Source of the DNA: an uncultured Candidatus Peribacteria bacterium
GTDB taxonomy: Bacteria > Patescibacteriota > Gracilibacteria > UBA1369 > 2-02-FULL-48-14
DNA: 64,000 bases
Assembly: GCA_964516995.1 (NCBI GenBank)
Contig: CAZFAV010000004.1
Location: 18,689-82,688 of the forward strand
Direction: 5' to 3'
The notes beneath the pieces are model-generated. The model was not told where the DNA came from. It ran no database searches and was given only the letters and a program-made list of their open reading frames with translations. The position numbers were made by a program, and so were the translations under genes. This document shows, piece by piece, positions 6,372 through 23,243 of the stretch (position 1 is the stretch's first letter; each line of letters begins with the position of its first letter).

Positions 6372-6485
6372 GTGCGGAGAGTATAGCGGAATACAGATTA
6401 AAAGGCCAGAGCCTGGACGGTCTGTCGTCCCCAATCGACACGACTTTTGCTTTTAAGACAGCCCTTTTCTGCTATTCTTGAATCG

Positions 6486-8117
6486 ATGAAGACCTGTGAG
6501 CGCTGCCAAATGGGGTTTGAGATCGGTACATGTGACCGCACTTTTTTAGAGAAGTTTGATGTGCCTGACCCCAAGCTTTGTCCTGATTGTCGCAACCAAC
6601 GTCGGCTTATTTTCCGTAATGACCGGAATTTCTACAAACGCAGCTGTGATCTTTGCCAAAAAGTGATCGTAAGCATTTGCTCTCCTGATAAACCCTTCCC
6701 CGTCTACTGCAAGGAATGTTATTTAAGCGATCGCTTCGACCCGCTCGTTTATGGCGCTTCCTACGATCCTTCTCGCTCTTTTATTGAGCAATTTGCTGAG
6801 ATGCGAGCTCGTGTACCTCGAGTGGCCAATTATTTTACGCAGTGTGAAAATTGCGATTACACCGTGCACACTGGCAACAGTCGCAATTGTTATATGGGCG
6901 CTTCTTTTGTGAATTGTGAAAACACTTATTATTCGGACTGGGCTTTTTATTGCAAAGACTCTTCTGATCTCTACATTTGCCAAAATATGGAGCGCTGCTA
7001 CGAATGCATGCAATGCGAGCAATGCTATAGCGGCATGTGGCTAGAAAACTGTATGGGCGTGAGTTTCTCTGCCCTTTGTTTTGATTGCCGTAGCTCTCAA
7101 TACCTTCTGGGCTGTGTGGGACAACGTCAAAAACAACACATGATTTTAAATGAGCCAGTGAGCGCGCAGGAATTTGAAAGCACTTGGAATAGGCTGATGA
7201 CTGACTCGACTTTTCGTAAGGAATTTAAAGAGAAATATCGTGCCCTTCGCCTCAGGATTCCCGTGAAATCCACTTGGGATAAAAACAGCGAAAACTGCAC
7301 TGGAAATTACGTGACCAATTCTCGCAACGCACAGGAGTCCTATGCGGTGAAAGATGTGGAGGATGGCTCTCATTTATACGAAGTGGGTGGACTCAAAGAT
7401 GGCATGGATGTGACCCGTTGTGCTCGTGGTGAATTTGTTTACGATGTGACGGCGCTCATCGATCTCAAGTTTAGTAAATTCTGCAATTTGTGTTATCAGT
7501 CCAGTAACATGGAGTACTGCGACAACTGCCAAAGTTCGCACAATTGTTTCGGTTGCATGGGGCTGAAGGGACATCGCTACTGCATTTTAAATCAGCAGTA
7601 TTCGCCCGAAGAATACGCCAGCTTGGTGGAAAAAATTCGTGCAGACATGCGAGCGCGGGGTGAGTACGGAGAGTTCTTCCCCGCTTCACTTTCGGTCTAT
7701 GGCTACAACGAAACCAAGGCTTGTGATTTCTATCCTCTGAGTAAAGAACAGGCCCTCGCAGAAGGGTTGAAGTGGCGGGACCCAGATGAAAGGTCTTACA
7801 CCGAACAAAAAATGAACTTACCAGAGGACTCCACAGAAGCTGCAGAAGATTTGGTGAACGAAGTACTGGCCTGCGAACTATGCAGTAAGAATTATCGTCT
7901 GATTTCTCAGGAATTGGCGCTGTATAAAATACTCGGAGTGCCTCTGCCACGGCAGTGCTACAATTGTAGACACTTGGCTCGCATGGCTTTGGAAACGCCT
8001 CGTCATTTGTGGGATCGCCACTGTGGCTCTTGTGGAATGGATATTCAAAGCACCTATTCCAGTGAGCGACCGGAGAAGGTTTTTTGTGAGAAGTGTTACC
8101 TAACCTCTGTAGTATGA
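6486..8117 (+). CDS. Cys-rich double-zinc-ribbon/CxxC-ladder family protein, paralogue P1 (subtype A, all four ribbons intact)
   Basis: I chose the ATG at MKTCERCQ, analogous to the other paralogues. N-module CxxC-x24-CxxC-x18-CxxC-x17-CxxC. Family motifs RPE-x-V(F/Y)CE-x-CY at the C-terminus. No TM or signal peptide. Confidence 0.9.
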   Translation: MKTCERCQMGFEIGTCDRTFLEKFDVPDPKLCPDCRNQRRLIFRNDRNFYKRSCDLCQKVIVSICSPDKPFPVYCKECYLSDRFDPLVYGASYDPSRSFIEQFAEMRARVPRVANYFTQCENCDYTVHTGNSRNCYMGASFVNCENTYYSDWAFYCKDSSDLYICQNMERCYECMQCEQCYSGMWLENCMGVSFSALCFDCRSSQYLLGCVGQRQKQHMILNEPVSAQEFESTWNRLMTDSTFRKEFKEKYRALRLRIPVKSTWDKNSENCTGNYVTNSRNAQESYAVKDVEDGSHLYEVGGLKDGMDVTRCARGEFVYDVTALIDLKFSKFCNLCYQSSNMEYCDNCQSSHNCFGCMGLKGHRYCILNQQYSPEEYASLVEKIRADMRARGEYGEFFPASLSVYGYNETKACDFYPLSKEQALAEGLKWRDPDERSYTEQKMNLPEDSTEAAEDLVNEVLACELCSKNYRLISQELALYKILGVPLPRQCYNCRHLARMALETPRHLWDRHCGSCGMDIQSTYSSERPEKVFCEKCYLTSVV

Positions 8118-9733
8118 CCACTTGCATACAGTGCCAGCGCCCCTTTGAGTGGACTCCCGAAGACGCGGCTTTCCTCAATAAAATCGCCCCGAGTATAGCT
8201 GGTACTTATTACGAATTCCCCGCGCCCACCCGATGCAGTGATTGCCGACGCCAACGCCGCTACAGTTTTCGCAATGATCGACACCTTTACAAACGTAAGT
8301 GCGACAAAACTGGGCGCGATATTATTTCCATCAATTCACCTGACAAAATTTATCCCGTCTATGCCATCGACGTGTGGTTCAGTGATGCTTATGATCCGCT
8401 AGAATACGGGCGGGACTTTGACTTTTCTAGGCCTTTTTTTGAACAGTTTGCCGAGCTCTCTCGCGTCGTACCGCGACCGGCTTCTTCGGTTGTGAACAGC
8501 GAAAACTGCGATTTCACCGCCTTCACATTGCAAAGTCGCAACTGTTTTTTAACATCTCGCCTATTTGGCAGCGAGGATATTTTCTACAGCTACTTGGCCA
8601 TTCACAGTCGATCTTCCATCGACTGTTACAACATCAACGACTGTGAGCTGTGTTACGAATGCAGCGACTGTGTACAGTGTTATCAATGCATTTACACCGA
8701 GCGTTCCAAGGGCAGCAGCGACCTCAAATTCTGCGCGGATATGAGTTCGTGCCAGAATTGTTTCGGCTCTGTGGGACTCGTGCAAAAACAATTCTATTTT
8801 TTTAATCAGCCACTCACGAAAGAGGAATATCAGAAGAAAGTGGCCGAGTGGTTCGATGGCAGTGCCGAATCGGTGGAGCGTTGTTTGAGCGCCTTCCGTG
8901 AGCACCAGAAAAAATACCCTGTGCGCGCAATGAACATTTTCAATTCCGAAAATGTTCTTGGCAGCAGCATCTTCGACAGCCGTAATATTTATAACTCTTT
9001 CGACATGGTGCAGTGCGAGGACTCGCGTTACTGCACCCAGAGTGAAAACTGCAAAGATATTATGGACGTGGATTTTGGAACGAGATCTGAAATTGGTTAT
9101 GAAGTGCTGTCTGATGGCATGAATCGCAGCGTGTATTTTTCTTATGCAGTGATTGGTAGCAACAATGATATTCTGTACTCAATGGTGGCCTACAACGGAA
9201 ATCAAAATTGTTTTGGCTGTGTGGGAATCAAAAAAAACTCCTACTGCATTTTGAACAAGCAGTACACGAAGGAAGAATATGAAGCACTGGTGCCCCGTAT
9301 CATTGAACATATGAAACAAACCGGCGAATGGGGCCAGTACTTCCCGATAGAGCTGTCTAATGTGGGGTACAACGAAAGTTGCGCGATGCTCGTACGTCCA
9401 CTTACTAAGGAACAAGCCCAGGCTCAGGGCTATCACTGGCACGACATGGAAGAAAGTGCCCCTGTGCAGGCCGAAGGCGAGAACATCGTGAAATGCAAAG
9501 AGAGCGGTCGCAGCTTTAGGCTGATCCCACAGGAGCTTAAGTTCTATGCGCAATTGGGCCTACCACGTCCTAGCGTGCATCCGGACCTCCGCCATTTAAA
9601 ACGGGTGGCCCTGCGTAATCCCTACTCCCTACACCCCAGCACCTGCCGCAAATGCTCTAAGGGCATTTGGACAGACCAAAGCGAAGACCGTATTATTTAC
9701 TGTATTGAGTGTTATTTGAGGGAGGTGTATTGA
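8114..9733 (+). CDS. Cys-rich family paralogue P2 (subtype B)
   Basis: ATGA overlap with P1 (8114-8117). MTTCIQCQ...RCSDCRRQRR, YGRDFDFSRPFFEQFAEL, YCILNKQYTKEEYEALVPRIIEHMKQTGEWGQYFP, C-terminal IIYCIECYLREVY. Confidence 0.9.
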   Translation: MTTCIQCQRPFEWTPEDAAFLNKIAPSIAGTYYEFPAPTRCSDCRRQRRYSFRNDRHLYKRKCDKTGRDIISINSPDKIYPVYAIDVWFSDAYDPLEYGRDFDFSRPFFEQFAELSRVVPRPASSVVNSENCDFTAFTLQSRNCFLTSRLFGSEDIFYSYLAIHSRSSIDCYNINDCELCYECSDCVQCYQCIYTERSKGSSDLKFCADMSSCQNCFGSVGLVQKQFYFFNQPLTKEEYQKKVAEWFDGSAESVERCLSAFREHQKKYPVRAMNIFNSENVLGSSIFDSRNIYNSFDMVQCEDSRYCTQSENCKDIMDVDFGTRSEIGYEVLSDGMNRSVYFSYAVIGSNNDILYSMVAYNGNQNCFGCVGIKKNSYCILNKQYTKEEYEALVPRIIEHMKQTGEWGQYFPIELSNVGYNESCAMLVRPLTKEQAQAQGYHWHDMEESAPVQAEGENIVKCKESGRSFRLIPQELKFYAQLGLPRPSVHPDLRHLKRVALRNPYSLHPSTCRKCSKGIWTDQSEDRIIYCIECYLREVY

Positions 9734-9758: not shown

Positions 9759-10481
9759 CTAATTCTCGGCCCACATTTTTTCAAACACAGCCATGAACAT
9801 TTTGTAAAAGGCAGGATTGGTAATACAAATGCAGTTGGTTTCTGCGGTTGCATCAAAAAGCATGATTTTATTGTCGAACAGGATACAAGTGGTTTCAAAA
9901 TAAGGGTCTTTAGGAAGAAATCTTACCTCTCGGCAGCTGGTTTTATCTTTCTTTTTTAAGTCTAATGCTGCTGGTGTTTTTTGAGCTAATAGCCGCGCGT
10001 AAATTTTCTTTTTTATTCTCTCTTTAGTCCATTTCTCCTCCCTCTTTGGATCTATGCCTTTTAAGAAAACATCGTAGTTGATCCAAATATTGATTACTTC
10101 GGGCTCGGTTCGGAGTATGTCTTCGTACATTTCTCGGTATCCTTCTGTGCCCTTGTAATATTGAACCTCGATGACCTGAGGAACATTTTTAGTAGCTTCA
10201 GCGAATCTGTCGACTAAATTTTGTGCTGCTTCATATTTTTCTTTTTCTTGATGCAAAACTTTTTTTGGATCATCTATCACAAAATAAGTCACGCGGCCTT
10301 TTTTGTAGCTGTAGACCAAATTCCTTTCCTCCAAGTTTTTTAAGGCTGCATATACGGTGGGCCTTTTAATTCCACTCATTCGTGCAAGAACTGAGGGTTG
10401 AGCGGTCCCAAGGTTAAACAAGAGAAGATATATGGCTGCCTCTTTAGGAGAAAATCCGAGTTTATAGAGTTCTTCTCTCAC
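9759..10481 (-). CDS. TrmB-family transcriptional regulator (TrmB-1)
   Basis: N-terminal winged-helix signature LGFSPKEAAIYLLLFNLGTAQPSVLARMSGIKRPTVYAALKNLEERNLV, about 240 aa. Convergent with P2 and divergent from the next block. Confidence 0.8.
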   Translation of the reverse strand: MREELYKLGFSPKEAAIYLLLFNLGTAQPSVLARMSGIKRPTVYAALKNLEERNLVYSYKKGRVTYFVIDDPKKVLHQEKEKYEAAQNLVDRFAEATKNVPQVIEVQYYKGTEGYREMYEDILRTEPEVINIWINYDVFLKGIDPKREEKWTKERIKKKIYARLLAQKTPAALDLKKKDKTSCREVRFLPKDPYFETTCILFDNKIMLFDATAETNCICITNPAFYKMFMAVFEKMWAEN

Positions 10482-10529: not shown

Positions 10530-10561
10530 GACCCTGGCTGGTTCGACATGTTTTTGGCTTA

Positions 10562-10589: not shown

Positions 10590-10606
10590 AGAATCTTATA
10601 TTTGAC

Positions 10607-12019: not shown

Positions 12020-12034
12020 GTTCCAATAGAGAGC

Positions 12035-12063
12035 TTGTCCTGTCGACCTTTTTCCGATATAAA
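12035..12063 (+). promoter_or_regulatory. Candidate internal promoter upstream of P3
   Basis: TTGTCC (12035-12040), a 17-nt spacer, then TATAAA (12058-12063). The ATG lies at 12081. Confidence 0.4.
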
Positions 12064-12080
12064 TAAGCTCTTTGATTTTT

Positions 12081-13727
12081 ATGGAACAGACCTGCAAAAT
12101 CACGGGGAAAAAGTTTGAATTTACGGACTGGGAGCTTCAAGTTCTGAGGAAATTTAGTGTGGATTTCCCAGCTCCTACGCTGTGCATTGAAGAGCGGCAC
12201 CGTCGCCGTTTGGCGCATCGCAATGAACGTAAGATTTACAAAAGCAAATGTGCCCTTTCCGGCAAAGATATTGTTTCGGTCTACTCGCCGGATAAACCCT
12301 ATACTGTGCTGGCTCCGGAGGTGTGGTGGAGTGACCAATGGGATCCCAAGTCCTATGGGCGTGACTTTGATTTTTCTCGTCCTTTTTTTGAACAGTTTGC
12401 AGAGCTTGAGCGGGATGTGCCTCACCTCGCGCTCATCAATGTGAATGGAGAAAACAGCGACTATTGCAATCTCACCACCGGTAATAAAAACTGCTATTTG
12501 GTCTTTGGCGGGGACTACAACCAAGACTCCATGTACAGCGCCTTCAGCATGCATGGCATAGACAATGTGGACGTATACTGGGTCACGGGCTCGGAGCTCA
12601 TTTATGACTGCACCGATTGTGAGGGCTGCTACAACCTTAAGTATTCTCGCAACTGTGTCTCTTGCCGCGAAAGTGCCTTTCTTTTTGCCTGCCGCAACTG
12701 TGAGAATTGTTTTGGCTGTGTGGGGCTCATCGGAAAGAAATACCACATTTTCAATCAGCCCTACTCGCCCGAAGAGTACAAAAAGAAAATTGCGGAATAC
12801 GATTTGAGTTCTTGGAAGAGCGTACAGTATTTAAAAGAAGAATTTGAGAAATTTCGGCTTAAATTCCCTCACCGTTATGCGCAAATCATCAACTCGGAAA
12901 ACTGCACCGGGGACCATATTTCTAATGCTAAAAATTGCATCAATTGCTTTGGCATAGAAGGTCCAGCGGAGGATGCGAAGGATCTTTTTTTGAGTGCGGA
13001 GAACATCAAAGACTGTTTGAGTTCGAGTCATTTTGGATACAAGGTGGAACTTTATTACGAGATGCTCGGTTCCTTGGAAGGCCGCGACTGTGCTTTTTGT
13101 AGTTTTTCTTGGACCTCCCAATCCACCTTCTACTGCGAAATGGTCACAAACTCTCACGACCTTTTTGGCTGCAGCAATATGAAGCGCGCGGAGTACTGCA
13201 TTTTGAACAAGCAATACAGCAAGGAGGAGTATTTTGCTTTGCGAGATCGAATCATGGAGCACATGAAGAAAACCGGAGAGTGGGGTGAGTTTTTCCCGAT
13301 TCAAAACTCCTTGTTTGCCTACAATGAGACCGTGGCCCAGGACTACTTCCCTCTCACTAAAGAGGAGGCTCTGGCTAAGGGCTATCAATGGCTGGATGAA
13401 GAAAGGCGCTCTGGCATTGGTCCGATGATTCCTGATCGTATTTCTGACACAACAGATACTATTCTGGGTCAGGCTTTAGTCTGTGAAAAAACGGGCCGTC
13501 CTTACCGCGTGATTCCTCAGGAATTGGCCTTTTATAGAAAGATGGGAGTGCCCGTGCCTCACTATGCACCAGAAACTCGCAATGAGCTGCGGATTGCCCT
13601 TAGAAATCCCATTCAAACATGGGAGCGGAAATGTGTGAAGTGCAACAAACCGATTCAGAGTTCTTATGCTCCCCACCGTCCAGAAATCGTGTACTGTGAT
13701 GACTGTTATTTAGCCTTGATGTACTAA
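12081..13727 (+). CDS. Cys-rich family paralogue P3 (subtype C, N-terminal ribbons degenerate)
   Basis: ATG at MEQTCKITG (the ORF-track TTG at 12072 is less likely). The single-Cys 'CKITGKKF' and 'LCIEERHRRR' replace CxxC/CPxCR. The family core motifs and the C-terminal CVKCNKPIQSSYAPHRPEIVYCDDCY are intact. Confidence 0.9.
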   Translation: MEQTCKITGKKFEFTDWELQVLRKFSVDFPAPTLCIEERHRRRLAHRNERKIYKSKCALSGKDIVSVYSPDKPYTVLAPEVWWSDQWDPKSYGRDFDFSRPFFEQFAELERDVPHLALINVNGENSDYCNLTTGNKNCYLVFGGDYNQDSMYSAFSMHGIDNVDVYWVTGSELIYDCTDCEGCYNLKYSRNCVSCRESAFLFACRNCENCFGCVGLIGKKYHIFNQPYSPEEYKKKIAEYDLSSWKSVQYLKEEFEKFRLKFPHRYAQIINSENCTGDHISNAKNCINCFGIEGPAEDAKDLFLSAENIKDCLSSSHFGYKVELYYEMLGSLEGRDCAFCSFSWTSQSTFYCEMVTNSHDLFGCSNMKRAEYCILNKQYSKEEYFALRDRIMEHMKKTGEWGEFFPIQNSLFAYNETVAQDYFPLTKEEALAKGYQWLDEERRSGIGPMIPDRISDTTDTILGQALVCEKTGRPYRVIPQELAFYRKMGVPVPHYAPETRNELRIALRNPIQTWERKCVKCNKPIQSSYAPHRPEIVYCDDCYLALMY

Positions 13728-15317
13728 ATGATTAATCGTTGTAGAAACTGCCAAAATCCTTTTGAGGTCACAGATAAGGACATGGAGTTTTATAAAAAGA
13801 TAGAAGTGACGCCTCCTAGTTTTTGCCCTTCGTGTCGCTTGCAAAGACGTCTCAGTTTCCGGAATGAAAGTAAACTCCATAAGAGGAGTTGTGATTTGTG
13901 TAAGAGACCCGTCATTTCTTTTTATTCTGAGCAGAGCCGTTTCCCTGTTTATTGCATGGAGTGTTGGTGGTCCGACCAATGGGATCCTTCTAGTTATGGA
14001 CGGGATTTTGATTTTTCACGTCCTTTTTTTGATCAGATGAAAGAATTGATGCAAGTAGTCCCCAAAGCTTCTGCGCTTCACTTAAACAATGAAAATTCTG
14101 AATATAATGCCCTGCTCGCCTTCAGCAAAAACACTTATATGTCTGCTGGTTCTTATTACGTAGAGGATTGTTTGTATGCTCGCAAGAGTCAGTACAGTAA
14201 AGACTGTTTGATCAGTAATTTCTTGGACCATTGTGAACTGGTGGCATGGAGCACTAATTCAAAGAACTGTTATCGTGCTCACCATCTTTTAAACTGTAGA
14301 AGTTGCAACAATTCGGCCTACCTAGCCGACTGCACAAGCTGTGAAAATTGCTTTATGTGCAGTGGGCTTAGTAATAAAAAATTCTGCTTTAAAAACCAGC
14401 AGTTGAGTGAAGAAGATTATCAGAAAAAGGTGGAGGAGTATCAGGATAAAAACCCTAAAGATATTTGGAAAGAATTTTGTACATTCAGTGCCAGCATCCC
14501 TAAGCGTTACCAAAATCAGCTCAGTTGTGAAAATTCTTCTGGAGACTATATCTATAACTCTAGAAATGCTACGGAGGTTTATGATTGTTTTGAAGTTCAA
14601 GACTCCAAATATTTACTCGAATGCGTCAATGTGAAGGACAGCATGGATCTTTCTATGCACGATAAAGACATCGAGCTTTGTTATGAACTGTGTTCAGGGG
14701 GTGACAGTAATTTTAACCTTAAATTCAGTTATTGCTCTTGTGCCTCTCCTAATTCCAGCTATCTATTTTCATGTTTTTACTTGGAGGACAGTTTGGGTTG
14801 TGACGGTTTTCATGCGCGTCAAAAAAACTATATTCTGAATAAAAAATATGGTGAAAGTGAATACCAAGAACTCAAAAAGCGGATCATTGAACATATGAAG
14901 AGAACTGGCGAATGGGGCGAGTTTTTCCCTATCACGCTCTCTTCCTTTCCTTATAATGAGAGTGTGGCTTTTAATAGCTTCCCCCTTACCCGCGAAGCAG
15001 CTTTACAGAACGGTTACTCTTGGGCAGAAGAAGAGTCCCGATCCGTGGCGACTGCACTTGGTGTTTTACAATGTGAAGTCTGTTCCAAACCTTATCGAAT
15101 CATTCCACAGGAAGCAGCTCTGGGTCAAAAAATTGGTGTTCCTCCTTCTACATTATGTGCAGACTGCCGATTTGCAGAACTTTTCAGCTGGAAGAATCCC
15201 CACCAACTTTGGTCTGGACAGTGTGATCGATGCAGTATGTCTATTCAAACCACCTATTCCCCTTCTCGTCCGGAAAAAGTTTACTGTGAGAAGTGTTATT
15301 TGGAGTCGGTGTACTAG
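13728..15317 (+). CDS. Cys-rich family paralogue P4 (subtype A, all four ribbons intact)
   Basis: TAAATG junction with P3. The N and C modules both show CxxC-x24-CxxC-x18-CxxC-x17-CxxC. I hand-counted 37 Cys in 529 aa. Confidence 0.9.
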   Translation: MINRCRNCQNPFEVTDKDMEFYKKIEVTPPSFCPSCRLQRRLSFRNESKLHKRSCDLCKRPVISFYSEQSRFPVYCMECWWSDQWDPSSYGRDFDFSRPFFDQMKELMQVVPKASALHLNNENSEYNALLAFSKNTYMSAGSYYVEDCLYARKSQYSKDCLISNFLDHCELVAWSTNSKNCYRAHHLLNCRSCNNSAYLADCTSCENCFMCSGLSNKKFCFKNQQLSEEDYQKKVEEYQDKNPKDIWKEFCTFSASIPKRYQNQLSCENSSGDYIYNSRNATEVYDCFEVQDSKYLLECVNVKDSMDLSMHDKDIELCYELCSGGDSNFNLKFSYCSCASPNSSYLFSCFYLEDSLGCDGFHARQKNYILNKKYGESEYQELKKRIIEHMKRTGEWGEFFPITLSSFPYNESVAFNSFPLTREAALQNGYSWAEEESRSVATALGVLQCEVCSKPYRIIPQEAALGQKIGVPPSTLCADCRFAELFSWKNPHQLWSGQCDRCSMSIQTTYSPSRPEKVYCEKCYLESVY

Positions 15318-15347
15318 GCTGGTATAGTGCTGCAGTTCCCTATAAAT

Positions 15348-17018
15348 ATGCTGCAAAACTGTTCCCAATGTTTCCAAGTGTTCGACATCTCCCCCGAAGA
15401 CTTGGCTTTTTATGATTCCATCTCTCCAGTGATGGGAGGACAGAAGCAAGCTATTCCTCCTCCTCAGCGCTGTCCTTCTTGTCGCCTTCAAAAGCGTATG
15501 GCTTTTAGGAATGAACGAAAGCTTTACCATCGCAAAAGTGATCTTAGCGGAAAATTAATCCTCACTAACTATTCTCCTGAGAAAAATTATAAAGTTTACG
15601 ATCAAGATGAATGGTGGTCCGACCAGTGGGAGGGACTGAGTTTTGGTCGGGATTTTGATTTTAATCGAAGCTTTAGCGAGCAGTTTGACGAGCTCATGCA
15701 CGAGGTGCCGCACATCTCTCTCATCAATACCGGTTGCGAAAACAGTTACTTCACCAACTTCGCTCTTTTTCAAAAAAACTGTTACCTCATTTTTGGCGGA
15801 GGGAACAGTGAGGATTGTATGCATGGAAAGTACATTGTGAGCTGCAAAAACTGTGTAGATAATCTGACTTTGTACAACTCTGAACTTTGTTATGAAGGAG
15901 TGGCTTCGGACAATTGTTACCAGTGCCATTACTTTTCGCATTCACGAAACTGCGTGGACTGCCTCATGATCGACAACTGTCTAGCCTGCAAGAATTGTAT
16001 CGGCTGTTTTGGCCTGGTGAATAAAGAATATTTTTACTTCAATCAATTTGTAGGGAAGGAGAAGTTTATGGAACTTAAGGCGGCTTTATATCCTTTGACT
16101 CCTGCTAAGATTGCTGCGCTTCGGACTCAGTTTGAGGCCATGAAGGCTCAGCTTCCTCATCGACAAGCGCGTATTTATGCGTCAGAGAATTGTACCGGTG
16201 ACAATATTTATAACTCAAAAAATTGCCAGATTTCTTACGACATTAAAGAGTGTGAAGACTGTAAGTTCATGAATTTTGCACCCAAGTGTAAGGGCAGTTA
16301 CGACACTTCTTTCTGCGCGCCGGACGGGGTGCAATTTTCTTACAATATGTGCTCCGCCATCAGTACTCGTTCTATGACGGGCTATTTAGTGTGGTATTGC
16401 GACAGTGTTTATTACTCCGAGGAGTGCCACCATTCTAATGATTTATTTGGCTGTGTAGGTCTCAAAAATAAACGTTATTGTATTTTAAATAAGCAGTACT
16501 CTAAGGGAGAATATGAAGCTTTGATGCCACGTATTATCGAGCACATGCGTAAGACCGGAGAGTGGGGTGAGTACTTTGATTATAAGCTCTCTCCCTTCTG
16601 TTATAACGAGACCGTGGCCCAAGAATATTTCCCTTTGGATGAGGCGGGAGCGGCAGCAGTCGGCGCGCGCTGGTACCCAGTAGCTCCAGAAACATTGGAA
16701 GGAACTTTACTGAGTTCTGTGCCCGAAAATATTCAAGAAGTGGGTGATGAAATCTTAAGCCAGGTTCTGACTTGTGAAGTCACTAAAAGACCTTATAAAA
16801 TCATCCCTCCAGAGTTGAAGTTTTATCGCTCCCAAGGCTTGCCAATACCTCGTCGACATCCGGATCAAAGGCACATGGATCGGGTAGCGTTGCATACCCC
16901 CTATCACCTTTTTGATCGCGCTTGCTCCCAGTGTGGCAAAGACATGCAAACTGCCTACTCAACTCAAAAAGCACCCATCGTTTATTGTGAAGAGTGCTAC
17001 CTCAAACTCATTTACTGA
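15348..17018 (+). CDS. Cys-rich family paralogue P5 (subtype B)
   Basis: I chose the ATG at MLQNCSQCF (the ORF-track GTG at 15327 is possible). ISPVMGGQKQAIPPPQRCPSCRLQKR, YCILNKQYSKGEYEALMPRIIEHMRKTGEWGEYF, C-terminal IVYCEECYLKLIY. Confidence 0.88.
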   Translation: MLQNCSQCFQVFDISPEDLAFYDSISPVMGGQKQAIPPPQRCPSCRLQKRMAFRNERKLYHRKSDLSGKLILTNYSPEKNYKVYDQDEWWSDQWEGLSFGRDFDFNRSFSEQFDELMHEVPHISLINTGCENSYFTNFALFQKNCYLIFGGGNSEDCMHGKYIVSCKNCVDNLTLYNSELCYEGVASDNCYQCHYFSHSRNCVDCLMIDNCLACKNCIGCFGLVNKEYFYFNQFVGKEKFMELKAALYPLTPAKIAALRTQFEAMKAQLPHRQARIYASENCTGDNIYNSKNCQISYDIKECEDCKFMNFAPKCKGSYDTSFCAPDGVQFSYNMCSAISTRSMTGYLVWYCDSVYYSEECHHSNDLFGCVGLKNKRYCILNKQYSKGEYEALMPRIIEHMRKTGEWGEYFDYKLSPFCYNETVAQEYFPLDEAGAAAVGARWYPVAPETLEGTLLSSVPENIQEVGDEILSQVLTCEVTKRPYKIIPPELKFYRSQGLPIPRRHPDQRHMDRVALHTPYHLFDRACSQCGKDMQTAYSTQKAPIVYCEECYLKLIY

Positions 17019-17767
17019 GCCACAAAGGAAGTGGCACCGAGCCAAGCGAGATTGTACACCGCTCTTTGTGTGCGAGCGTACACTGCGGATTCAATGAGTA
17101 GGCCAATGGATTCCTCGGGATCGAGCGACATGACTGCAACCGTGTTCCCATAAATAGAAATTTGATTTTCAAAGTTGAACTCTTTGGGGTTTACAAAGAG
17201 AATTTCCACAAGTTCTTCTGGATAATTTTTGGGATAAAAGGTTTTCACAAAGCGACGCGCTTCTTCAGTGGAGGGGGAGAGTAGACGGGTTTTAATTCCT
17301 CGCTTCACGAGTTTCTGGGTGTAGCTGGGCAGATAGTCAGGGAGCAATTTGCCTAATGCAGCCAAGTTGGTGTAACCCAGCACTTCCGACTCCGCCTCTA
17401 GGGTTTGATCGAAGATGGTTTTGATCCCCTCGATTCCTTCGTAAGAACGAATAAGTGGTTTAAAAGATTGTGGACTGATGAGCGAAAGGAGTTGAGGCAA
17501 AAGCTTTTTGGCAGAAGCGTATTTTTCTTGAATTTGATTAACGAGAACTTGCGGAGGCTCGGCCACAAAAAACTTCACATTGCCTTTGAGATTGGACGTG
17601 ACGAGTCCGCGGCGCCGCAGATTTTCTAAGACATAATAACAGTTCACGCGTGGTACTTTGGATTTGCTGGCGATGGTGCTGGCAAAGGACCCTCCCAGCT
17701 CTAAGACGGTGAGGTAAACTTGTGCCTCTTCTTTGGATAAACCGAGTTCTTCGAGCTCAGGAAGCAT
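17012..17767 (-). CDS. TrmB-family transcriptional regulator (TrmB-2)
   Basis: LGLSKEEAQVYLTVLELGGSFASTIASKSKVPRVNCYYVLENLRRRGLV winged-helix signature, 251 aa. The 3' end overlaps the P5 stop by 7 nt (convergent). Confidence 0.8.
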   Translation of the reverse strand: MLPELEELGLSKEEAQVYLTVLELGGSFASTIASKSKVPRVNCYYVLENLRRRGLVTSNLKGNVKFFVAEPPQVLVNQIQEKYASAKKLLPQLLSLISPQSFKPLIRSYEGIEGIKTIFDQTLEAESEVLGYTNLAALGKLLPDYLPSYTQKLVKRGIKTRLLSPSTEEARRFVKTFYPKNYPEELVEILFVNPKEFNFENQISIYGNTVAVMSLDPEESIGLLIESAVYARTQRAVYNLAWLGATSFVAQ

Positions 17768-17793
17768 AGTGTTGTAAAGTTTTTTCTACAATA

Positions 17794-17822
17794 ATTTTAA
17801 TCTGTTATAAGTATAATTTCAA
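17794..17822 (-). promoter_or_regulatory. Candidate promoter for TrmB-2
   Basis: On the minus strand, TTGAAA (17817-17822), a 17-nt spacer, then TAAAAT (17794-17799). The ATG lies at 17767. Confidence 0.45.
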
Positions 17823-17831
17823 GCAAATCGT

Positions 17832-17860
17832 ATGACAATATTTACAAAATTTGCTATGAT
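17832..17860 (+). promoter_or_regulatory. Candidate promoter for the csaA-like/P6-P8 block
   Basis: ATGACA (17832-17837), a 17-nt spacer, then TATGAT (17855-17860). Its -35 lies 9 nt from the -35 of the divergent TrmB-2 promoter. Confidence 0.45.
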
Positions 17861-17919
17861 GGGTACTAGCATTTAGAAAACAGGGCCAAACCCCTGTCCG
17901 TTTATTTCATTTGTCTTCT

Positions 17920-18252
17920 ATGGCGACTATCGACGATTTCAATGCCTTAGACATCCGCGTGGGTAAAATCACAGCGGCAGAACCCTTCCCTGAGGCACGA
18001 AAACCTGCTTACAAACTCACCATAGACTTTGGTCCAGAAATTGGACTGAAGCACTCTTCAGCTCAAATCACTCAGCATTATGAACGTGAAGCTTTGGTGG
18101 GTCGTTTGGTGCTGGGCGTGGTGAACTTTCCTCCTCGGCAAATCGGGCCTTTTCAATCTGAAGTGCTAACTTTGGGTTTGCCCGATGAAAATGGAGACGT
18201 GGTCCTTATTCAGCCTGATAGAGATTTACCCTTAGGTGGTCGCCTTTTCTAA
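17920..18252 (+). CDS. csaA: CsaA/YgjH-like tRNA-binding domain protein
   Basis: DIRVGKITAAEPFPEARKPAYKLTIDFGPEIGLKHSSAQIT...LVGRLVLGVVNFPPRQIGPFQSEVLTLG matches the OB-fold tRNA-binding (EMAP/CsaA) domain pattern. I prefer the ATG at 17920 to the TTG at 17911. Confidence 0.75.
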   Translation: MATIDDFNALDIRVGKITAAEPFPEARKPAYKLTIDFGPEIGLKHSSAQITQHYEREALVGRLVLGVVNFPPRQIGPFQSEVLTLGLPDENGDVVLIQPDRDLPLGGRLF

Positions 18253-18253
18253 T

Positions 18254-19900
18254 ATGAATTCCCTGACTAAAACTTGTAGAGTGAGCGGCCAAGATTTTGT
18301 GGTGAGTCCTACGGATCAAGCCTTTTATGAGAAACTGGGAGTTCCTTTACCCACTTTGAGCCCGGAAGAAAGACGACGACGACGCTATGCTCATCGCAAT
18401 GAAAGGCACTTGTACCATCGCACTTGTGGACTCAGTGGCAAGACTTTGATTTCCAATATTTCTCCAGAAAGTGGGATCCCCGTGTATGAATCTGCGGAAT
18501 GGTGGAGCGACAAATGGGACGCCCTGCAGTATGGCCGTGACTTTGATTTCTCCCGTCCTTTTTTCGAGCAATTTAAGGAACTTAGTCGTGTAGTGCCTCA
18601 ATTGGCTCTCTCAGTTTGGAATTCTGAGAACAGTAGTTATTGCAACTATGTAGGGAACGTGAAAGACTCTTATTTGATCTTTGGTTCGGTTTACTCCGAG
18701 CAGTGTTATTTCGGCTCTCCCTACTATTCCCGAGACTGCATCGATACTTTAGTGGTGCGCGATTGTGAACACTGCTACGAATGCATTGACTGTCGCAAAC
18801 TTTACGAATGTTTTTACTGCCAAGATTGCCACACTTCTTCGCAGCTCATTGCCTGTTATGACTGCCAAAGTTGCCAAGACTGCATCGGCTGTGCGGGTCT
18901 GCGCAGAAAGCAGTATTGCATCTTTAACAAACAAGTGAGCAAGGAAGAATATGAAAAGTTTAAGTCAGAGCTGAATCTTTGCGACCCAGCTACTCGAACT
19001 CATTTAGAGCAAGAACTCGCTCGGTTAAAGTTAGAAATTCCCCACCGCTACATGCACAGCGGGCAGGTAGAAAATGTGAGCGGAGATTATGTTTATCAAA
19101 GCAAAAACGCAGAAGATTGCTTCTTTACTGACCGCTCAGAAGACGTGGCTCACTGTATGCAAGTGGTGGACTTAAAAGATTGCTTTGATAATAATTTTAC
19201 AGAAGAAAATGAGCTCTGCTACGAATATTTAGGAGCTTATCAAAATCAGCGAGTCTTGTTTTCTAAGTTTCTCAATAAGGTCTCTGAAAGTTTCTACTGT
19301 GACAGTTGTTTCAATTCCAAAAATCTTTTTGGCTGTATTGGAATGAGAGGAAAGTCTTACTGCATTCTGAACAAGCAATACAGTAAGGAAGAATATGAAG
19401 CCTTAGTTCCTCGTATCATCGAGCATATGAAGAAAACGGGCGAGTGGGGTGAGTTTTTCCCTATAGACAGCTCTCTGTTTGCCTACAACGAAACAGTGGC
19501 CAATGAGTATTTTCCTCTGACCGAGGAAGAAGCTAAGGCCCGTAGCTACGCTTGGAGAAAAGAAGATGAAAGTAGTACTTACCAAGGTCCACACGCTCAA
19601 ATTCCGGAAAATATTTCTGAGGTGCCGGACTCTATCATGGACCAGATACTCACCTGCGAAGTGAGTGGGAAACTGTATAAAATCATCCCCGCTGAGTTGG
19701 AGTTTTACCGACGAATGCATTTGCCCGTGCCTCGTCGCTGTCCCAACCAGCGGCATCAAGATCGCCTCCAAAAGCGTAATCCTCAAAAACTATGGCCATG
19801 GGAATGCTCCCAGTGCGGGACTGGTATTTCTACTGTCTACTCACCTGAGCGAGCGGAAAAGGTTTACTGTGAAGCATGTTATTTAAAATTGGTTTACTAA
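18254..19900 (+). CDS. Cys-rich family paralogue P6 (subtype C)
   Basis: The ATG lies 1 nt after the csaA-like stop. 'CRVSGQDF' and 'LSPEERRRRR' mark degenerate ribbons. There are 12 Cys in 43 residues at 18764-18892. C-terminal KVYCEACYLKLVY. Confidence 0.9.
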   Translation: MNSLTKTCRVSGQDFVVSPTDQAFYEKLGVPLPTLSPEERRRRRYAHRNERHLYHRTCGLSGKTLISNISPESGIPVYESAEWWSDKWDALQYGRDFDFSRPFFEQFKELSRVVPQLALSVWNSENSSYCNYVGNVKDSYLIFGSVYSEQCYFGSPYYSRDCIDTLVVRDCEHCYECIDCRKLYECFYCQDCHTSSQLIACYDCQSCQDCIGCAGLRRKQYCIFNKQVSKEEYEKFKSELNLCDPATRTHLEQELARLKLEIPHRYMHSGQVENVSGDYVYQSKNAEDCFFTDRSEDVAHCMQVVDLKDCFDNNFTEENELCYEYLGAYQNQRVLFSKFLNKVSESFYCDSCFNSKNLFGCIGMRGKSYCILNKQYSKEEYEALVPRIIEHMKKTGEWGEFFPIDSSLFAYNETVANEYFPLTEEEAKARSYAWRKEDESSTYQGPHAQIPENISEVPDSIMDQILTCEVSGKLYKIIPAELEFYRRMHLPVPRRCPNQRHQDRLQKRNPQKLWPWECSQCGTGISTVYSPERAEKVYCEACYLKLVY

Positions 19901-21555
19901 TGACGCCTATTACTCAAAAATGTCGGGTGACTGGCCAAGCCTTTGTCATTGATGATGGAGACCAAGCCATGCTGGCTAAGCTGGGGATGCCATTACCCAC
20001 GCTTTGTCCTCAAGAGCGTCAAAGACGTCGTATGAGTTTTAGAAACGATCACCAACTCTACCACCGTAAATGTGATGCCACGGGTAAAGAAATCATCTCC
20101 TTATACCACTCTGATAGTCCATTCACTATTTATAGCCAAGAGTTTTATAGGAGCGATAAGTGGGACCCTAAAACATATGGGCAAGATTTTGATTTTTCTA
20201 GACCTTTCTTTGAGCAGTTTGCTGAGTTGCAAAAAAAGGTGCCTCGCATTGCCATCAATGCTTTAGGCAATGAAAATTCAGATTTCACTAGTTATACCGG
20301 CTGGAATCGCAATTGTTACCTCATTGTCACTTCGGATCGAAATGAAGATTCATACTTTGGCTACTTTCTTTTTGACAGTAAGAACTGTGTGGATAGCTTG
20401 TATGTTTTCAACTCAGAACTCTGCTATGAATGCGTAGACTGTAAGAATTGCTACCACTGTTTCTTTGGCCTGAATCTGGAAAACTGTACGGACTGCTTGT
20501 TCTCTCGTGATCTTATTGGATGCAGTGAATGTTTTGGCTGTATTAATCTTCGAAATAAAAAGTACTGTTACTTTAACGAGCAGCTGACTAAAGAAGAGTA
20601 TGAAAAAAGAATCAATGCGTTAAATCTGGCCTCCTATGAATCACTAAAGGCTATTCGTGGGGAGGTAGAGGCATTCTTTTTAAGTCATCCACGACGCGCC
20701 CTGGACATTAAAGCCTCGGAAAATGTTTCTGGAGATCATATTAAATTCTCAAAAAATTGTTCTAATGCTTACGATGTAAGTAATTGTCAGGACTGCCGCT
20801 ATGTTTCTCACTTTATCAACTCTAAAGATTGTATGGATTGGGACTACTGTGGAGACAAAAGCGAAATGGGTTACGAAATTAGTGGCTGCGTTGATTTGAA
20901 GTTTTCTGCTTTTGCCACCAACTGTTGGGTGGGTAATAGCTACCTCTATTACTGTGATTTGATGAATAACTCGAAGTACTGCTTTGGGTGTATTGGACTG
21001 GATAAAGGCGAATACTGCATTTTGAATAAGCAGTACAGTAAGGAAGAATATGATGTGCTGGTAGGTCGTATCGTGGATCATATGAAGAAAACTGGTGAAT
21101 GGGGCGAATTCTTCCCTTCACCATTGAGTCCCTTTGGTTACAACGAGACGGTGGCGCAGGATTACCTTCCTTTGACCCAGGAACAGGCTCAAGAGAGAGG
21201 TTTACGTTGGCATAATAAGGCAGAAAAAGCCTCCTATCAGGGTCCGAAGCTGAGCTTGCCTGACTCTGTGAAGGAAACGGATGAAAAAATCTGTTCTCAA
21301 ATTCTCACTTGTGAAGTCAGTGATGAACATTACCGGGTCATTTCTCAAGAACTTCGCTTCCATAAAGAGCACCAACTGGCTTTGCCACGGCGTTCTCCAA
21401 ACCAAAGATTTTTGGATCGCGTTCGCTTGCGAAATCCTCGTCAACAATGGGCAAGAAGCTGTGGGCTCTGTGGCAAAACCATGATGAGCAGTTATAGCCC
21501 TGAGCGCCCTGAGATTGTCTACTGTGAAGAATGCTTTATTAAAACCGTTTACTGA
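19900..21555 (+). CDS. Cys-rich family paralogue P7 (subtype C)
   Basis: TAATG overlap with P6. 'CRVTGQAF' and 'LCPQERQRRR'. YCILNKQYSKEEYDVLVGRIVDHMKKTGEWGEFFP. C-terminal IVYCEECFIKTVY. Confidence 0.9.
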   Translation: MTPITQKCRVTGQAFVIDDGDQAMLAKLGMPLPTLCPQERQRRRMSFRNDHQLYHRKCDATGKEIISLYHSDSPFTIYSQEFYRSDKWDPKTYGQDFDFSRPFFEQFAELQKKVPRIAINALGNENSDFTSYTGWNRNCYLIVTSDRNEDSYFGYFLFDSKNCVDSLYVFNSELCYECVDCKNCYHCFFGLNLENCTDCLFSRDLIGCSECFGCINLRNKKYCYFNEQLTKEEYEKRINALNLASYESLKAIRGEVEAFFLSHPRRALDIKASENVSGDHIKFSKNCSNAYDVSNCQDCRYVSHFINSKDCMDWDYCGDKSEMGYEISGCVDLKFSAFATNCWVGNSYLYYCDLMNNSKYCFGCIGLDKGEYCILNKQYSKEEYDVLVGRIVDHMKKTGEWGEFFPSPLSPFGYNETVAQDYLPLTQEQAQERGLRWHNKAEKASYQGPKLSLPDSVKETDEKICSQILTCEVSDEHYRVISQELRFHKEHQLALPRRSPNQRFLDRVRLRNPRQQWARSCGLCGKTMMSSYSPERPEIVYCEECFIKTVY

Positions 21556-23243
21556 TGCAAAAAACTTGTAAAAATTGCCAAATTTCTTTTGAGATTTATC
21601 CTGAAGACCTTGCTTTTTATGAGCGCATCTCTCCTACTTTTGACGGCAAGAAATTTCCTATTCCTACTCCCACGCTCTGCCCAACCTGCCGATGGCAAAG
21701 GCGTACTGCTTTTAGAAATGAGCGGACGCTCTATCATGCCACTTGCGGGCTGAGTGGAAAGTCCATGATTTCCATGCATCGTCCCGACGTTCCTTTTCCT
21801 GTGTACTCCATTAACGAGTGGCGCTCCGATAAATGGAATCCTTTAGATTACGGTCGAGATTTTGATTTCTCTCGACCTTTCTTTGAACAATTTAAGGAGC
21901 TTTGTGATCGGGTTCCACACTTCAACTTATTTGTAGATCCAGACATGGATGTAAACTCCGAATACACGAACTGTGCCGATCATTCAAAAAACTGCTATCT
22001 CATTTCTCAGGCAGAAAATAATGAAGACTGTTACTACACTCGTGGCATCAACCAGTGTAAGGACTGCGTTGATGATTTGCGCATCCAACAGTCGGAACTC
22101 TGCTATGAATGTGTAGGGCTTTTTTCATGCTATCGCTGCCTTTACTGCCAAGACTGCGAAAACAGCGTGGACTGTGCTTTTTCATCTGATTTAAAAGGAT
22201 GTAAAAACTGTTTTGGCTGCCATGGTTTGGTTCAAAAACAGTATTACTTTTTTAATCAGCCACTCAGCAAGGAAGAGTGGGAGAAACGAGTTCAAGAACT
22301 GGAACTGACCCCGGTTCTCATTGAAGAACTTCAAGCGCAAAGTGAGACTGTACGACTCCAAACTCCGCATCGAGCCGTGCACCAGACTCAGTGCGAAAAC
22401 GTAACAGGAGACCATTTGGTGCAGTGTAAAAATTCTCACGATGTTTATGACTCTAAAGATTTAGAAGAATGCGCTTATTGTTACGAAATTTTGAATGGTG
22501 CCAAGTATGCTTACGATTACTCCATGTGGGGTGTAAATGCGGAATTGCTCTACGAGTGTAATGGCGTGGGAAACAATGCTTACAACGTTTTGTTCACCAA
22601 TCATGGGTGGCAGAATTTGACGAATGTTCTTTACAGCGAAAGCTGTTTCCCATCTGTTAAAGACTGCTTTGGCTGTTTTGGACTCCGTCGTGCTCAATAC
22701 TGTATTTTCAATAAGCAATACACTAAAGAAGAATATGAATCGATGGTGGCTCGCATTTTGGAACACATGCAAAAAACGGGGGAATGGGGTGAATTTTTCC
22801 CGATTGAAATGAGTCCTTTTGCGTATAACGAAACCGTAGCTCAACTGGTGCTCCCTCTAAGCAAAGAGCAAGTTTTAGCCAAGGGTTGGAAGTGGTATGA
22901 GCGTGAAGAAGCTAAAGCACAATATATTGGACCGGATGTAGAGATCCCTAGTAAAATTCGTGAAACAAGTGATGAAATCACCAAACAAATTTTACGCTGC
23001 AAAAAAACTGGAAAGCTTTATAAAGTGATCCCCCAAGAACTGAACTTCTACCGAAAAATGGGTGTCCCTGTGCCCCTTGTTTGTCCTGAGCAAAGGCTTT
23101 TGGATCGAGCGGCTCGGCGAAATCCTCGTGTTCTCTGGAATCGAGCTTGCAGCGCTTGTGGACAAAACACTCTCAGTAGCTATGCTCCGAATCGACCAGA
23201 AATCGTGTACTGCGAAGCCTGTTATTTAAAAACGGTTTACTAA
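21555..23243 (+). CDS. Cys-rich family paralogue P8 (subtype B)
   Basis: TGATG overlap with P7. MQKTCKNCQ...ISPTFDGKKFPIPTPTLCPTCRWQRR. YCIFNKQYTKEEYESMVARILEHMQKTGEWGEFFP. C-terminal IVYCEACYLKTVY. Confidence 0.9.
   Translation: MQKTCKNCQISFEIYPEDLAFYERISPTFDGKKFPIPTPTLCPTCRWQRRTAFRNERTLYHATCGLSGKSMISMHRPDVPFPVYSINEWRSDKWNPLDYGRDFDFSRPFFEQFKELCDRVPHFNLFVDPDMDVNSEYTNCADHSKNCYLISQAENNEDCYYTRGINQCKDCVDDLRIQQSELCYECVGLFSCYRCLYCQDCENSVDCAFSSDLKGCKNCFGCHGLVQKQYYFFNQPLSKEEWEKRVQELELTPVLIEELQAQSETVRLQTPHRAVHQTQCENVTGDHLVQCKNSHDVYDSKDLEECAYCYEILNGAKYAYDYSMWGVNAELLYECNGVGNNAYNVLFTNHGWQNLTNVLYSESCFPSVKDCFGCFGLRRAQYCIFNKQYTKEEYESMVARILEHMQKTGEWGEFFPIEMSPFAYNETVAQLVLPLSKEQVLAKGWKWYEREEAKAQYIGPDVEIPSKIRETSDEITKQILRCKKTGKLYKVIPQELNFYRKMGVPVPLVCPEQRLLDRAARRNPRVLWNRACSACGQNTLSSYAPNRPEIVYCEACYLKTVY

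Follow-up and report, generated by a model that had tools for sequence, protein, structure and literature searches.

P4 is a protein of 529 residues encoded in a 64,000-nucleotide stretch of DNA (hereafter the window) from an uncultured Candidatus Peribacteria bacterium (assembly GCA_964516995.1, contig CAZFAV010000004.1, positions 18,689 to 82,688 of the forward strand). It is one of eight tandem, anciently diverged paralogs, P1 to P8, of a cytoplasmic family whose members are labelled almost only as Patescibacteria. Homologous pairs of four-Cys fingers are found at both ends of P4 and enclose two homologous core halves; this architecture, and the duplication history that it reflects, are practically certain. 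The best guess on the role of the protein is that of an acidic scaffold, which carries zinc-stabilised basic helices at both ends and works with an ATPase. The gene model is confirmed by full-length orthologues at 72% identity; the ATG of P4 directly abuts the stop codon of P3 (TAAATG). The parts of P4 are the following.

13728..15317 (+): P4 coding sequence, 529 residues plus stop, based on the translation and on the full-length orthologues.
13728..13871 (+), residues 1-48: N1, Cys4 treble-clef-like finger (C5, C8, C33, C36), followed by a basic helix with an Arg ladder (R37, R41, R45) and N46.
13872..13979 (+), residues 49-84: N2, zinc ribbon CxxC-x17-CxxC (C55, C58, C76, C79).
13980..14078 (+), residues 85-117: linker 1, a unique and highly conserved aromatic/acidic segment with one helix.
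14079..14402 (+), residues 118-225: core half A, about 8-9 coils of a 12-residue repeat.
14403..14510 (+), residues 226-261: inter-half helices, AlphaFold helices 228-239 and 243-256.
14511..14843 (+), residues 262-372: core half B, duplicate of core half A with more degenerate Cys.
14844..15062 (+), residues 373-445: helix following core half B and linker 2, unique and highly conserved.
15063..15203 (+), residues 446-492: C1, duplicate of N1 (C449, C452, C477, C480, R481).
15204..15314 (+), residues 493-529: C2, duplicate of N2 (C499, C502, C520, C523).

In a scripted listing of the translation, Cys residues are found at positions 5, 8, 33, 36, 55, 58, 76 and 79 of the N-terminal module, and at positions 449, 452, 477, 480, 499, 502, 520 and 523 of the C-terminal one. 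The spacing is identical at the two ends, CxxC-x24-CxxC-x18-CxxC-x17-CxxC, as stated in a first-pass annotation of the same DNA, which had also correctly placed the modules at nucleotides 13740-13964 and 15072-15314 and read each terminus as a tandem pair of four-Cys fingers. The same spacing had been attributed to the N module of P1, and is found there (Cys 17/20/45/48/67/70/88/91) as well as in the C module of that protein (Cys 476/479/504/507/526/529/547/550). Across the eight window paralogs, modules and core halves (16 of each) align with hardly a gap. Sequence contexts said to be shared by the modules recur in the 16-module alignment: F/Y-x-I/V past the first knuckle, PP before the second, CR past it, and a terminal VYCxxC(Y/W). 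AlphaFold models were obtained for P4 (52 sequences; predicted local distance difference test, pLDDT, 80.9; predicted template modelling score, pTM, 0.83) and for P6 (148 diverse sequences; pLDDT 89.3, pTM 0.91). N and C modules are alike in both, being made of a beta-hairpin, two helices, a second beta-hairpin and a C-terminal helix (beta-beta-alpha-alpha-beta-beta-alpha). The hairpin pair of N2 is present in both models.

The two termini are homologous duplicates, as BLASTP and profile-profile alignment agree. BLASTP of P4 alone aligns the N and C modules over 79 ungapped residues (28% identity, E 5e-14), and hhalign pairs them with a probability (Prob) of 99.8 (E 5.7e-30) or 99.9 (E 7e-33) when profiles of 52 or 273 sequences, respectively, are compared. 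For core halves A and B, similarly thought to be duplicates in the first-pass annotation, the corresponding values are Prob 99.4 (E 1e-21) with the smaller set and 99.9 (E 1.5e-33) with the larger; within P4 alone, BLASTP detects them weakly (E 0.002). Failure of profile-profile alignment to reveal significant self-similarity had been named beforehand as the result that would tell against the duplications, and was seen neither for the modules nor for the core halves. The testable parts of the earlier interpretation have thus all held. CxxC spacings converge in many unrelated zinc ribbons, and this, together with the weak alignment of the P4 core halves when taken alone, could suggest that the fingers at the two termini are convergent and that the core is a compositional artefact, rich in Cys and Asn, with no true internal homology. 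This possibility is refuted, and its residual probability is negligible. Changing every Cys to X leaves Prob 99.5 (E 3e-23) for the modules and Prob 99.8 (E 1e-28) for the cores, and homology is therefore independent of Cys spacing. Control comparisons of modules with cores scored Prob 0.6-2.2, and below 2 in the Cys-masked run. The alignments are ungapped, non-Cys motifs are common to both copies, and ribbon 1 of a module finds no match in ribbon 2 (Prob 3-16).

The layout proposed for P4, two zinc ribbons (ZnR2), core A, helices, core B, helix, ZnR2, is borne out. The term pseudo-twofold, by which it had been denoted, holds only as a description of domain order. This order is a mirrored one (ZnR-A / B-ZnR), and the linkers share no similarity. 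A single tandem duplication would yield ZnR-A-ZnR-B, and the actual order is ZnR / A / B / ZnR. Because of the mirrored order and of the unrelated linkers, one duplication of a ZnR-core unit cannot explain the architecture. At least two events are plausibly involved, one in which the core was duplicated and another in which the module was duplicated and moved. The hypothesis that linkers 1 and 2 make up a third duplicated pair was rejected, as they match at Prob 0.1 in hhalign (residues 80-120 versus 390-448). Cys apart, the two unique linkers (about residues 80-117 and 394-445) are the most conserved parts of the protein. Residues D83, W85, D95, F100, F101, Q103, L107 and P112 in and next to linker 1 are found in at least 90% of the family, and linker 2 includes a segment reading 'GEWGEFFP...YNE(S/T)...FPL...W'.

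Each core half is a stack of 12-residue repeats, a feature absent from the first-pass annotation. Positive autocorrelation of Cys in core A is confined to lags divisible by 3 and peaks at 3, 9 and 12 (0.66 at lag 12), and of the approximately 14 core-A Cys found in each protein 94% on average fall in one mod-3 register. The coil consensus is [SN]-[EK]-[ND]-C-[YF]-x-c-x-x-c-x-n, coils starting with [SN]-[EK]-[ND]-C-[YF]. In the 12-residue frame, coils 1-5 of core A read sENS.. / nKNCYL.. / nEDCyY.. / skdCvD.. / sELCYEC..C.n, and the remaining ones CYnc.....C.n / CsDS.....C.g / C.NCFgC. The half ends with CENCFMCSGL and a beta-hairpin cap, and the first inter-half helix, 'SEEDYQKKVEEY', still belongs to repeat A. 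Core B repeats the order of core A, both in the frame (ENc / sKNc / sEDc / KDc / sELcYE) and in the succession of motifs (ENS, KN, ED, KD, ELCYE ... FGCxG ... ILNK.Y..EY). Overall, 8-9 coils of core A fit the frame, as do the first 5 of core B. A repeat of 21 residues was considered and dropped, as the 12-residue frame fits better and agrees with both the model and the database match described below. In the P6 model, residues 181-216 of the core form isolated bridges, 'E--E--E-----', with a 12-residue period, and bridges with a period of 6 residues are found in part of core B. Each core half is probably a narrow beta-solenoid.

Core Cys occupancy ranges from 27 to 94% per column, the substitutes being S, V, L, I and A. 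No pair of core Cys covaries (phi coefficient <0.45), versus 0.8-1.0 in the terminal quartets. Given this lack of covariation and the hydrophobic replacements, the notion that core Cys form extra zinc quartets (CxxC-x8-CxxC) was rejected; we infer that they are buried ladder residues rather than metal ligands.

The best PDB match of the core profile (16 halves) at the sequence level is the Tenebrio antifreeze protein 1EZG, aligned over 65 ungapped columns (E 0.013). It scores 21.3 bits, versus -5.8 +/- 2.9 for 500 composition-matched shuffles. The Tenebrio molitor antifreeze protein is a secreted, Cys-rich, right-handed beta-helix with 12 residues per coil. Its consensus is TCTxSxxCxxAx, where Cys six residues apart form a disulfide ladder and Thr-Cys-Thr a face of the helix. 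The core has a tandem repeat of the same 12-residue period, one Cys ladder per coil, and turns rich in Asn, Ser and Thr. In contrast, it lacks the TCT ice-binding motif, its Cys lie in a 3-residue register and not in i/i+6 disulfide pairs, and they are freely replaced by S, V, L or I. The window protein is moreover cytoplasmic, has no Pfam match, and features no signal peptide, since its N-terminus is a zinc finger. The resemblance is probably a structural analogy, and denotes neither homology nor membership. Left-handed beta-helices (GlmU, LpxA/LpxD, gamma-carbonic anhydrase), which the 6-residue bridges in part of core B recall, lead the Foldseek lists of both models, but they match at E >= 0.23 and TM scores <= 0.2, and differ from the core in repeat length and motif; no match to the hexapeptide repeat PF00132 ([LIV]-[GAED]-x2-[STAV]-x) was found in Pfam at E <= 1. 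None of 350,542 PDB chains was matched by either model in Foldseek at E < 0.2, and profiles of the family, the modules and the core found no significant match among PDB sequences, hitting only a half-LIM finger (see below) and the borderline antifreeze protein. In the models, the core looks solenoid-like yet superimposable on no solved fold. The core-A Cys repeat (P6 residues 167-221, window positions 18734-18898; P1 residues 131-218) matches phrog_15341, a phage family of unknown function, at E 7e-8. Sub-threshold zinc fingers aside, this is the only match in PHROGs, Pfam, NCBIfam and PADLOC; a tblastn search of 50,697 phage records with P6 gave none.

The Cys of the terminal quartets tend to be present or absent jointly. 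In 156 diverse family members, phi is 1.0 for residues 58/76/79, 0.96 for 452/480 and 0.8 for 8/36. In 240 full-length copies from 83 loci, ribbons mostly have either 4 Cys or only 0-2 (1 being the commonest low value), and rarely 3. The state '4444', in which all fingers are intact, is the commonest (68/240 copies). C2 is nearly always intact, with its four Cys retained in about 99% of members, and losses are commonest in N2 and C1. In the window, P1 and P4 are 4444, and the other six paralogs 4114, 2114, 4014, 1124, 2114 and 4124. As their Cys are kept or lost largely together, the terminal quartets behave as real Cys4 metal sites, and all four plausibly bind structural zinc, as far as covariation indicates. 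In lost quartets the first Cys (C5, C55, C449) is still retained in 91-98% of members, and the other three ligands are replaced by S/T, E/D/Q or H.

Only the first Cys and the Arg following the second knuckle (R37/R481) are invariant in all the 16 window modules. R37, R41, R45 and N46 are found in at least 90% of the family, including paralogs that have lost Cys; P3, P6 and P7, all of which have lost N1 Cys, retain the basic helix at these positions. N1 and C1 are basic, with mean net charges of +2.8 and +5.3, against values between -4 and -6 for either core and linker 2.

In each module, the first finger resembles a treble clef rather than a classical ribbon, and consists of a knuckle, a hairpin, and a second CxxC set at the start of a helix. 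In N1, C5/C8 precede strands 2-4 and 11-13, and C33/C36 are located at the beginning of helix 34-43, as in zf_Tbcl (PF13451) fingers; C449/452 and C477/480 are similarly arranged, with helix 478-487. P4 N1 matches zf_Tbcl at 19.0 bits (E 0.0014), below the 24-bit cut-off, residues 4-40 aligning to positions 7-44 of the 48 in the profile. Five of the 16 window modules match this family weakly, and PF13451 is found in the precomputed Pfam annotation of some orthologues. The second fingers (C55/58-x17-C76/79 and C499/502-x17-C520/523) have the CxxC-x17-CxxC organization of PF23477 (zf_Tbcl_2) and TIGR04272. P4 is below the cut-offs of both (17.3 bits versus 27, and 12.9 versus 36), as is the best window paralog in zf_Tbcl_2 (about 19 bits). 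When modules were isolated, 9 of the 16 matched zf_Tbcl_2/TIGR04272 (best E 6e-6). N1 and C1 therefore align to zf_Tbcl, N2 and C2 to zf_Tbcl_2, with the same knuckle spacings. The zf_Tbcl families are small uncharacterised bacterial, archaeal and phage proteins denominated 'zinc-ribbon domain containing'. The window proteins, in contrast, join the two finger types into one module and carry a copy of it at each end of some 530 residues, on either side of a large core not made of zinc fingers. As the zf_Tbcl families have no known function, they provide no explanation of the mechanism. The sole Foldseek matches in BFVD are small phage proteins annotated as 'putative zinc-ribbon domain', which superimpose on the terminal module with probability 1.0 and a root-mean-square deviation of 0.3-5 A over 41-70 columns, at E values of only 0.019-1.4. 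The second finger of LIM/CRP proteins also aligns to C2 and N2 (CxxC-x17-CxxC, VYC..CY ending; E 0.005-0.01 in PDB), but the similarity is limited to half a LIM domain, as neither the first finger, which contains His, nor the fold of two contiguous fingers (ligands C2HC + C4/C2HD) is present. LIM (PF00412) scores 15.3 bits in P6 (cut-off 22.9), and a His ligand is lacking.

The eight paralogs are all encoded on the + strand, and the other seven are 36-40% identical to P4.

6447..8117 (+): P1, all four Cys4 sites intact.
8093..9733 (+): P2, N2 and C1 reduced to one Cys each.
12072..13727 (+): P3, N1, N2 and C1 degenerate, Arg ladder kept.
15327..17018 (+): P5, paralog.
18236..19900 (+): P6, the paralog modelled at pLDDT 89.3.
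19876..21555 (+): P7, paralog.
21555..23243 (+): P8, last copy of the array.

For seven of the eight copies the best match in another genome is 58-72% identical, versus 39-47% within the window; P7 is the exception, with 46.7% and 45.2%, respectively. Being closer to their counterparts in other genomes than to each other, the copies are old, and presumably non-redundant. P1 and P2 overlap by 25 nt, P3 and P4 abut, and P4 and P5 are 9 nt apart; P6 and P7 overlap by 25 nt, and P7 and P8 share 1 nt. Such tight or overlapping junctions, in an array (6447-23243) which is interrupted, suggest translational coupling within sub-operons.

A search of 5.8 billion proteins returned 5,297 relatives. Among the matches listed, named entries read 'hypothetical' or 'zinc-ribbon domain containing', and almost all of these come from Patescibacteria. 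Exhaustive HMMER searches of representatives at 50% identity identified 3,365 clusters, 1,262 of them at E <= 1e-30, alike in length and architecture. Among species representatives of GTDB, it is found in Peregrinibacteria/Peribacteria, Gracilibacteria, Abawacabacteria, Staskawicz-, Nomura- and Giovannonibacteria, Paceibacterota and Minisyncoccia. A few records are labelled otherwise ('Gammaproteobacteria', 'Pseudomonadota'); these are mostly metagenome-assembled genomes, the taxonomic labels of which have been taken as given. Phrog_15341 excepted, no family for the core is present in Pfam, NCBIfam, PADLOC or PHROGs, and for the termini only the sub-threshold zinc-finger matches were obtained. 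A literature search by family, domain names, DUF8128, and candidate phyla radiation combined with zinc ribbon found no description of the family. The building blocks (treble-clef finger, zinc ribbon, beta-solenoid) are of known kinds. The family, its core domain and the mirrored duplicated architecture appear to be undescribed, and so do the decay of zinc sites by whole quartets, in which the Arg ladder survives, and the association in operons with orphan VirD4-like ATPases, dealt with below.

A gene encoding an ATPase is found downstream of P8, and two regulatory genes are inserted in the array.

23300..25558 (+): apparently soluble VirD4/TraD-like P-loop ATPase, 752 residues, Walker A GKSGTGKS, acidic C-tail.
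9759..10481 (-): TrmB-like winged-helix regulator in the array.
17012..17767 (-): second TrmB-like regulator in the array.

No hydrophobic segment is present at the N-terminus of the translated ATPase. The protein matches the Pfam families T4SS-DNA_transf (36.6 bits, cut-off 20.1) and TrwB_AAD_bind (35.3 bits, cut-off 20.5), and is far below the cut-offs of all T4CP (type IV coupling protein), TraD and CedD models of NCBIfam. No relative was found in PDB by sequence. It also matches the phage family phrog_5156, of unknown function (E 4e-67), and, weakly, mad8 of PADLOC. Four related loci, L001 to L004, reached through individual orthologues, contain 2-7 tandem copies, mostly interspersed with genes for TrmB-like regulators, and all carry a protein of ~750 residues with DUF8128 and T4SS-DNA_transf domains; the ATPase gene is syntenic in L001-L003 and divergent in L004. 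No VirB genes are found among the annotated neighbours in the window and in L001-L004. The TrmB-family regulators, about 240-250 residues long, are encoded opposite to the array in the window, and in either orientation in related loci.

The sample of loci, capped at 80, is weighted to close relatives of P4, and the flanks of 10 kb under-count the neighbours of long arrays. At least two copies, and up to 10, are found in 34 of the 45 loci (out of 82) spanning 15 kb or more; the ATPase is encoded within 10 kb in 16 of the 45, and a TrmB-like gene in 18. The ATPase is thus close to the array in 36% of the loci, versus about 4% expected per random 21-kb stretch, a rough estimate which assumes about two VirD4 copies per genome of ~1 Mb. 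In 14 of 21 occurrences the ATPase gene lies 5-250 bp downstream of the last copy, on the same strand; in many Patescibacteria genomes it is conserved as the gene that closes the array. Unbiased clustering of flanking open reading frames (ORFs) over 83 loci identified TrmB-like genes (33/83) and the ATPase (21/83) as the only recurrent neighbours besides antisense shadow ORFs. A survey of Patescibacteria counted 5,713 VirD4 homologues in 2,918 genomes, only 148 of these homologues being near virB4, and its authors suggested that VirD4 homologues have possibly been exapted for other functions (PMC12102498).

P4 may be imagined as a rigid, acidic, double-solenoid body, carrying at each end a basic helix held by zinc sites. 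The N-end helix would expose R37/R41/R45/N46, an i/i+4/i+8 Arg ladder, the C-end helix R481 and its neighbours. These helices would dock a polyanionic partner, most likely nucleic acid, or alternatively the acidic C-tail of the ATPase. Different paralogs might act jointly, or with distinct specificities, with a soluble VirD4/TraD-like ATPase of hexameric type; this partner, belonging to the FtsK/HerA superfamily, would usually be the last, co-transcribed gene of the array. Nucleic-acid binding, raised as a speculation in the first-pass annotation, is still one, compatible with the conserved Arg ladder and the charge distribution. Coupling proteins acting with adaptors or substrates (R388 TrwB-TrwA, F TraD-TraM, Legionella DotL-IcmSW) offer a parallel, in that an ATPase of the VirD4/TraD family with an acidic C-tail is encoded beside small or medium-sized proteins with a basic patch that could dock it. 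Unlike those systems, the ATPase is apparently soluble, very divergent, and not encoded beside VirB genes, and the presumed partners have no similarity to known relaxosome or adaptor proteins. Taken as a whole, architecture plus inferred mechanism, this explanation has slightly less than an even chance to be correct; its functional part is rather doubtful. It is also conceivable, as a tentative extension, that arrays, ATPases and TrmB-like regulators make up an unrecognised cytoplasmic machine of Patescibacteria, which might represent the exapted role of thousands of orphan VirD4 homologues, and that the core is a new class of beta-solenoid fold with 12-residue coils and a Cys ladder in 3-residue register.

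Several observations weigh against such a scaffold. The whole protein is acidic (isoelectric point 5.6-6.0), and the C1 segment of P4 itself has a charge of only +1. Zinc ligands of N2 and C1 are lost in many paralogs, and zinc is thus dispensable for at least part of the function. The ATPase is found in only 21 of 83 loci, a figure due in part to the 10-kb flanks and to short contigs, and some arrays may lack it. The solenoid geometry is derived from AlphaFold models in which core segments have moderate confidence (pLDDT 58-85), and the match to the antifreeze helix is borderline and may reflect shared periodicity only.

Other functions have been considered for these proteins. The two rigid solenoid halves could polymerise end-to-end or side-by-side, as in bactofilins, to form a hetero-oligomeric scaffold in which zinc modules serve as interaction caps. 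A set of 2-10 ancient, non-redundant paralogs per array would suit a hetero-oligomer, and the gene dosage is high when set against a genome size of about 1 Mb. Yet a hairpin and a helix apparently cap both solenoid ends, which speaks against open-ended polymerisation, neither bactofilins nor other cytoskeletal families were matched in Pfam and NCBIfam, and the best-conserved residues are located in linkers and Arg helices rather than at the solenoid ends; a structural role is held unlikely. Hardly more favoured is the idea that the paralogs are effectors, or adaptors, of a VirD4-like coupling protein, exported into the host bacterium by way of Patescibacteria's type IV secretion system (T4SS). 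In a cultured Saccharibacterium, epibiotic growth requires the T4SS (PMC12857230), most VirD4 homologues are away from virB4 (PMC12102498), the operon link with the ATPase is conserved, and multi-copy families are typical of effector repertoires. Against export are the features of the ATPase, which has no N-terminal hydrophobic stretch and scores far below T4CP cut-offs, the lack of VirB genes in the annotated loci around arrays, and the proteins themselves, predicted to be tightly folded and zinc-bound, devoid of signal peptide or obvious C-terminal translocation signal, and 55-72% identical among orthologues, unlike fast-evolving effectors.

The abundance of Cys (5-7.6% in the paralogs), the resemblance of CYECMQCEQC (P1) and CEHCYECIDC (P6) to cluster-binding motifs, and the presence in the window of genes for ferredoxin-dependent enzymes (PFOR) might rather denote a metal-cluster, metal-storage or redox domain, perhaps a metallothionein-like buffer, in which the many CxxC and CxxCxxCxxC runs would ligate Fe-S clusters, Zn or Cu. 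This is improbable, as core Cys show neither conservation nor covariation and give way to S/V/L/I/A and not to H/D/E, several consensus Cys are missing in P4, and neither Fer4 nor any other cluster family was matched in Pfam and NCBIfam. An enzyme having its active site in the linkers (WWSDxWDP..YGRDFDFSRPFFEQF and GEWGEFFP..YNET..FPL) is similarly improbable. Solenoids and zinc fingers would in this case be mere scaffolding or substrate-binding parts, and paralogs would differ in substrate, ancient paralogs with stable orthologues being reminiscent of enzyme subfamilies. Non-Cys residues conserved in at least 90% of the family include D83, W85, D95, F100, F101 and Q103 at the first linker, and G397, F399, F400, P401, Y409 and N410 at the second. 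Still, no similarity to a catalytic family or fold was found in Pfam, NCBIfam, PDB sequences or by Foldseek, neither a catalytic dyad or triad nor a nucleotide-binding motif is obvious, and the aromatic/acidic segments could equally be hydrophobic core or interface.

Whatever the role, eight old, non-redundant copies of one protein type take up about 13 kb, in a group of bacteria whose genomes measure only about 1 Mb. The type is unnamed, its core is without a Pfam model, and no relative has a solved structure; the family comprises 3,365 clusters at 50% identity. The domain map could seed a new family definition, and the core is predicted to be a new short-repeat solenoid. The loss of whole Cys quartets next to an Arg ladder which is kept provides a natural experiment in zinc-site loss. 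The arrays also offer a concrete partner for 'orphan' VirD4-like ATPases, the role of which is left open in the literature (PMC12102498); should the ATPase link be functional, the question of their role would become directly testable.

The array is interrupted by a 470-residue ORF (10607-12019, +), with a hydrophobic stretch near residue 340. It has no match in Pfam, NCBIfam, PADLOC and PHROGs, and no counterpart was detected by tblastn in the other 82 loci. L002 hosts an unannotated ORF of 473 residues in a similar position, which is not matched in tblastn. A tRNA-binding-domain protein (PF01588) of 113 residues is encoded upstream of P6 (17911-18252, +), overlapping its GTG start by 17 nt; being found in only 4 of 83 loci, this gene is probably not part of the system. 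Neither ORF was retained as a conserved member of the array. The 64-kb window yielded no tRNA, tmRNA or Rfam family. Housekeeping genes flank the array, and encode PFOR subunits (363-3139, +), a GlmU-like nucleotidyltransferase/hexapeptide protein (5064-6434, -) and a PurP-like DUF1246/DUF1297 protein (25721-26845, -). As PFOR and nucleotidyltransferase genes are syntenic with L001, the array is chromosomal, and not carried by a mobile element.

Antisense ORFs are found within paralog genes (11988-12746, 15555-15941 and 19403-19786, all on the - strand), and two are located in P4 (13710-13979 and 14322-14600, -). Such ORFs cluster over 32 loci (66 ORFs, median length 152 residues), and are most likely shadows of the conserved sense frame rather than genes.

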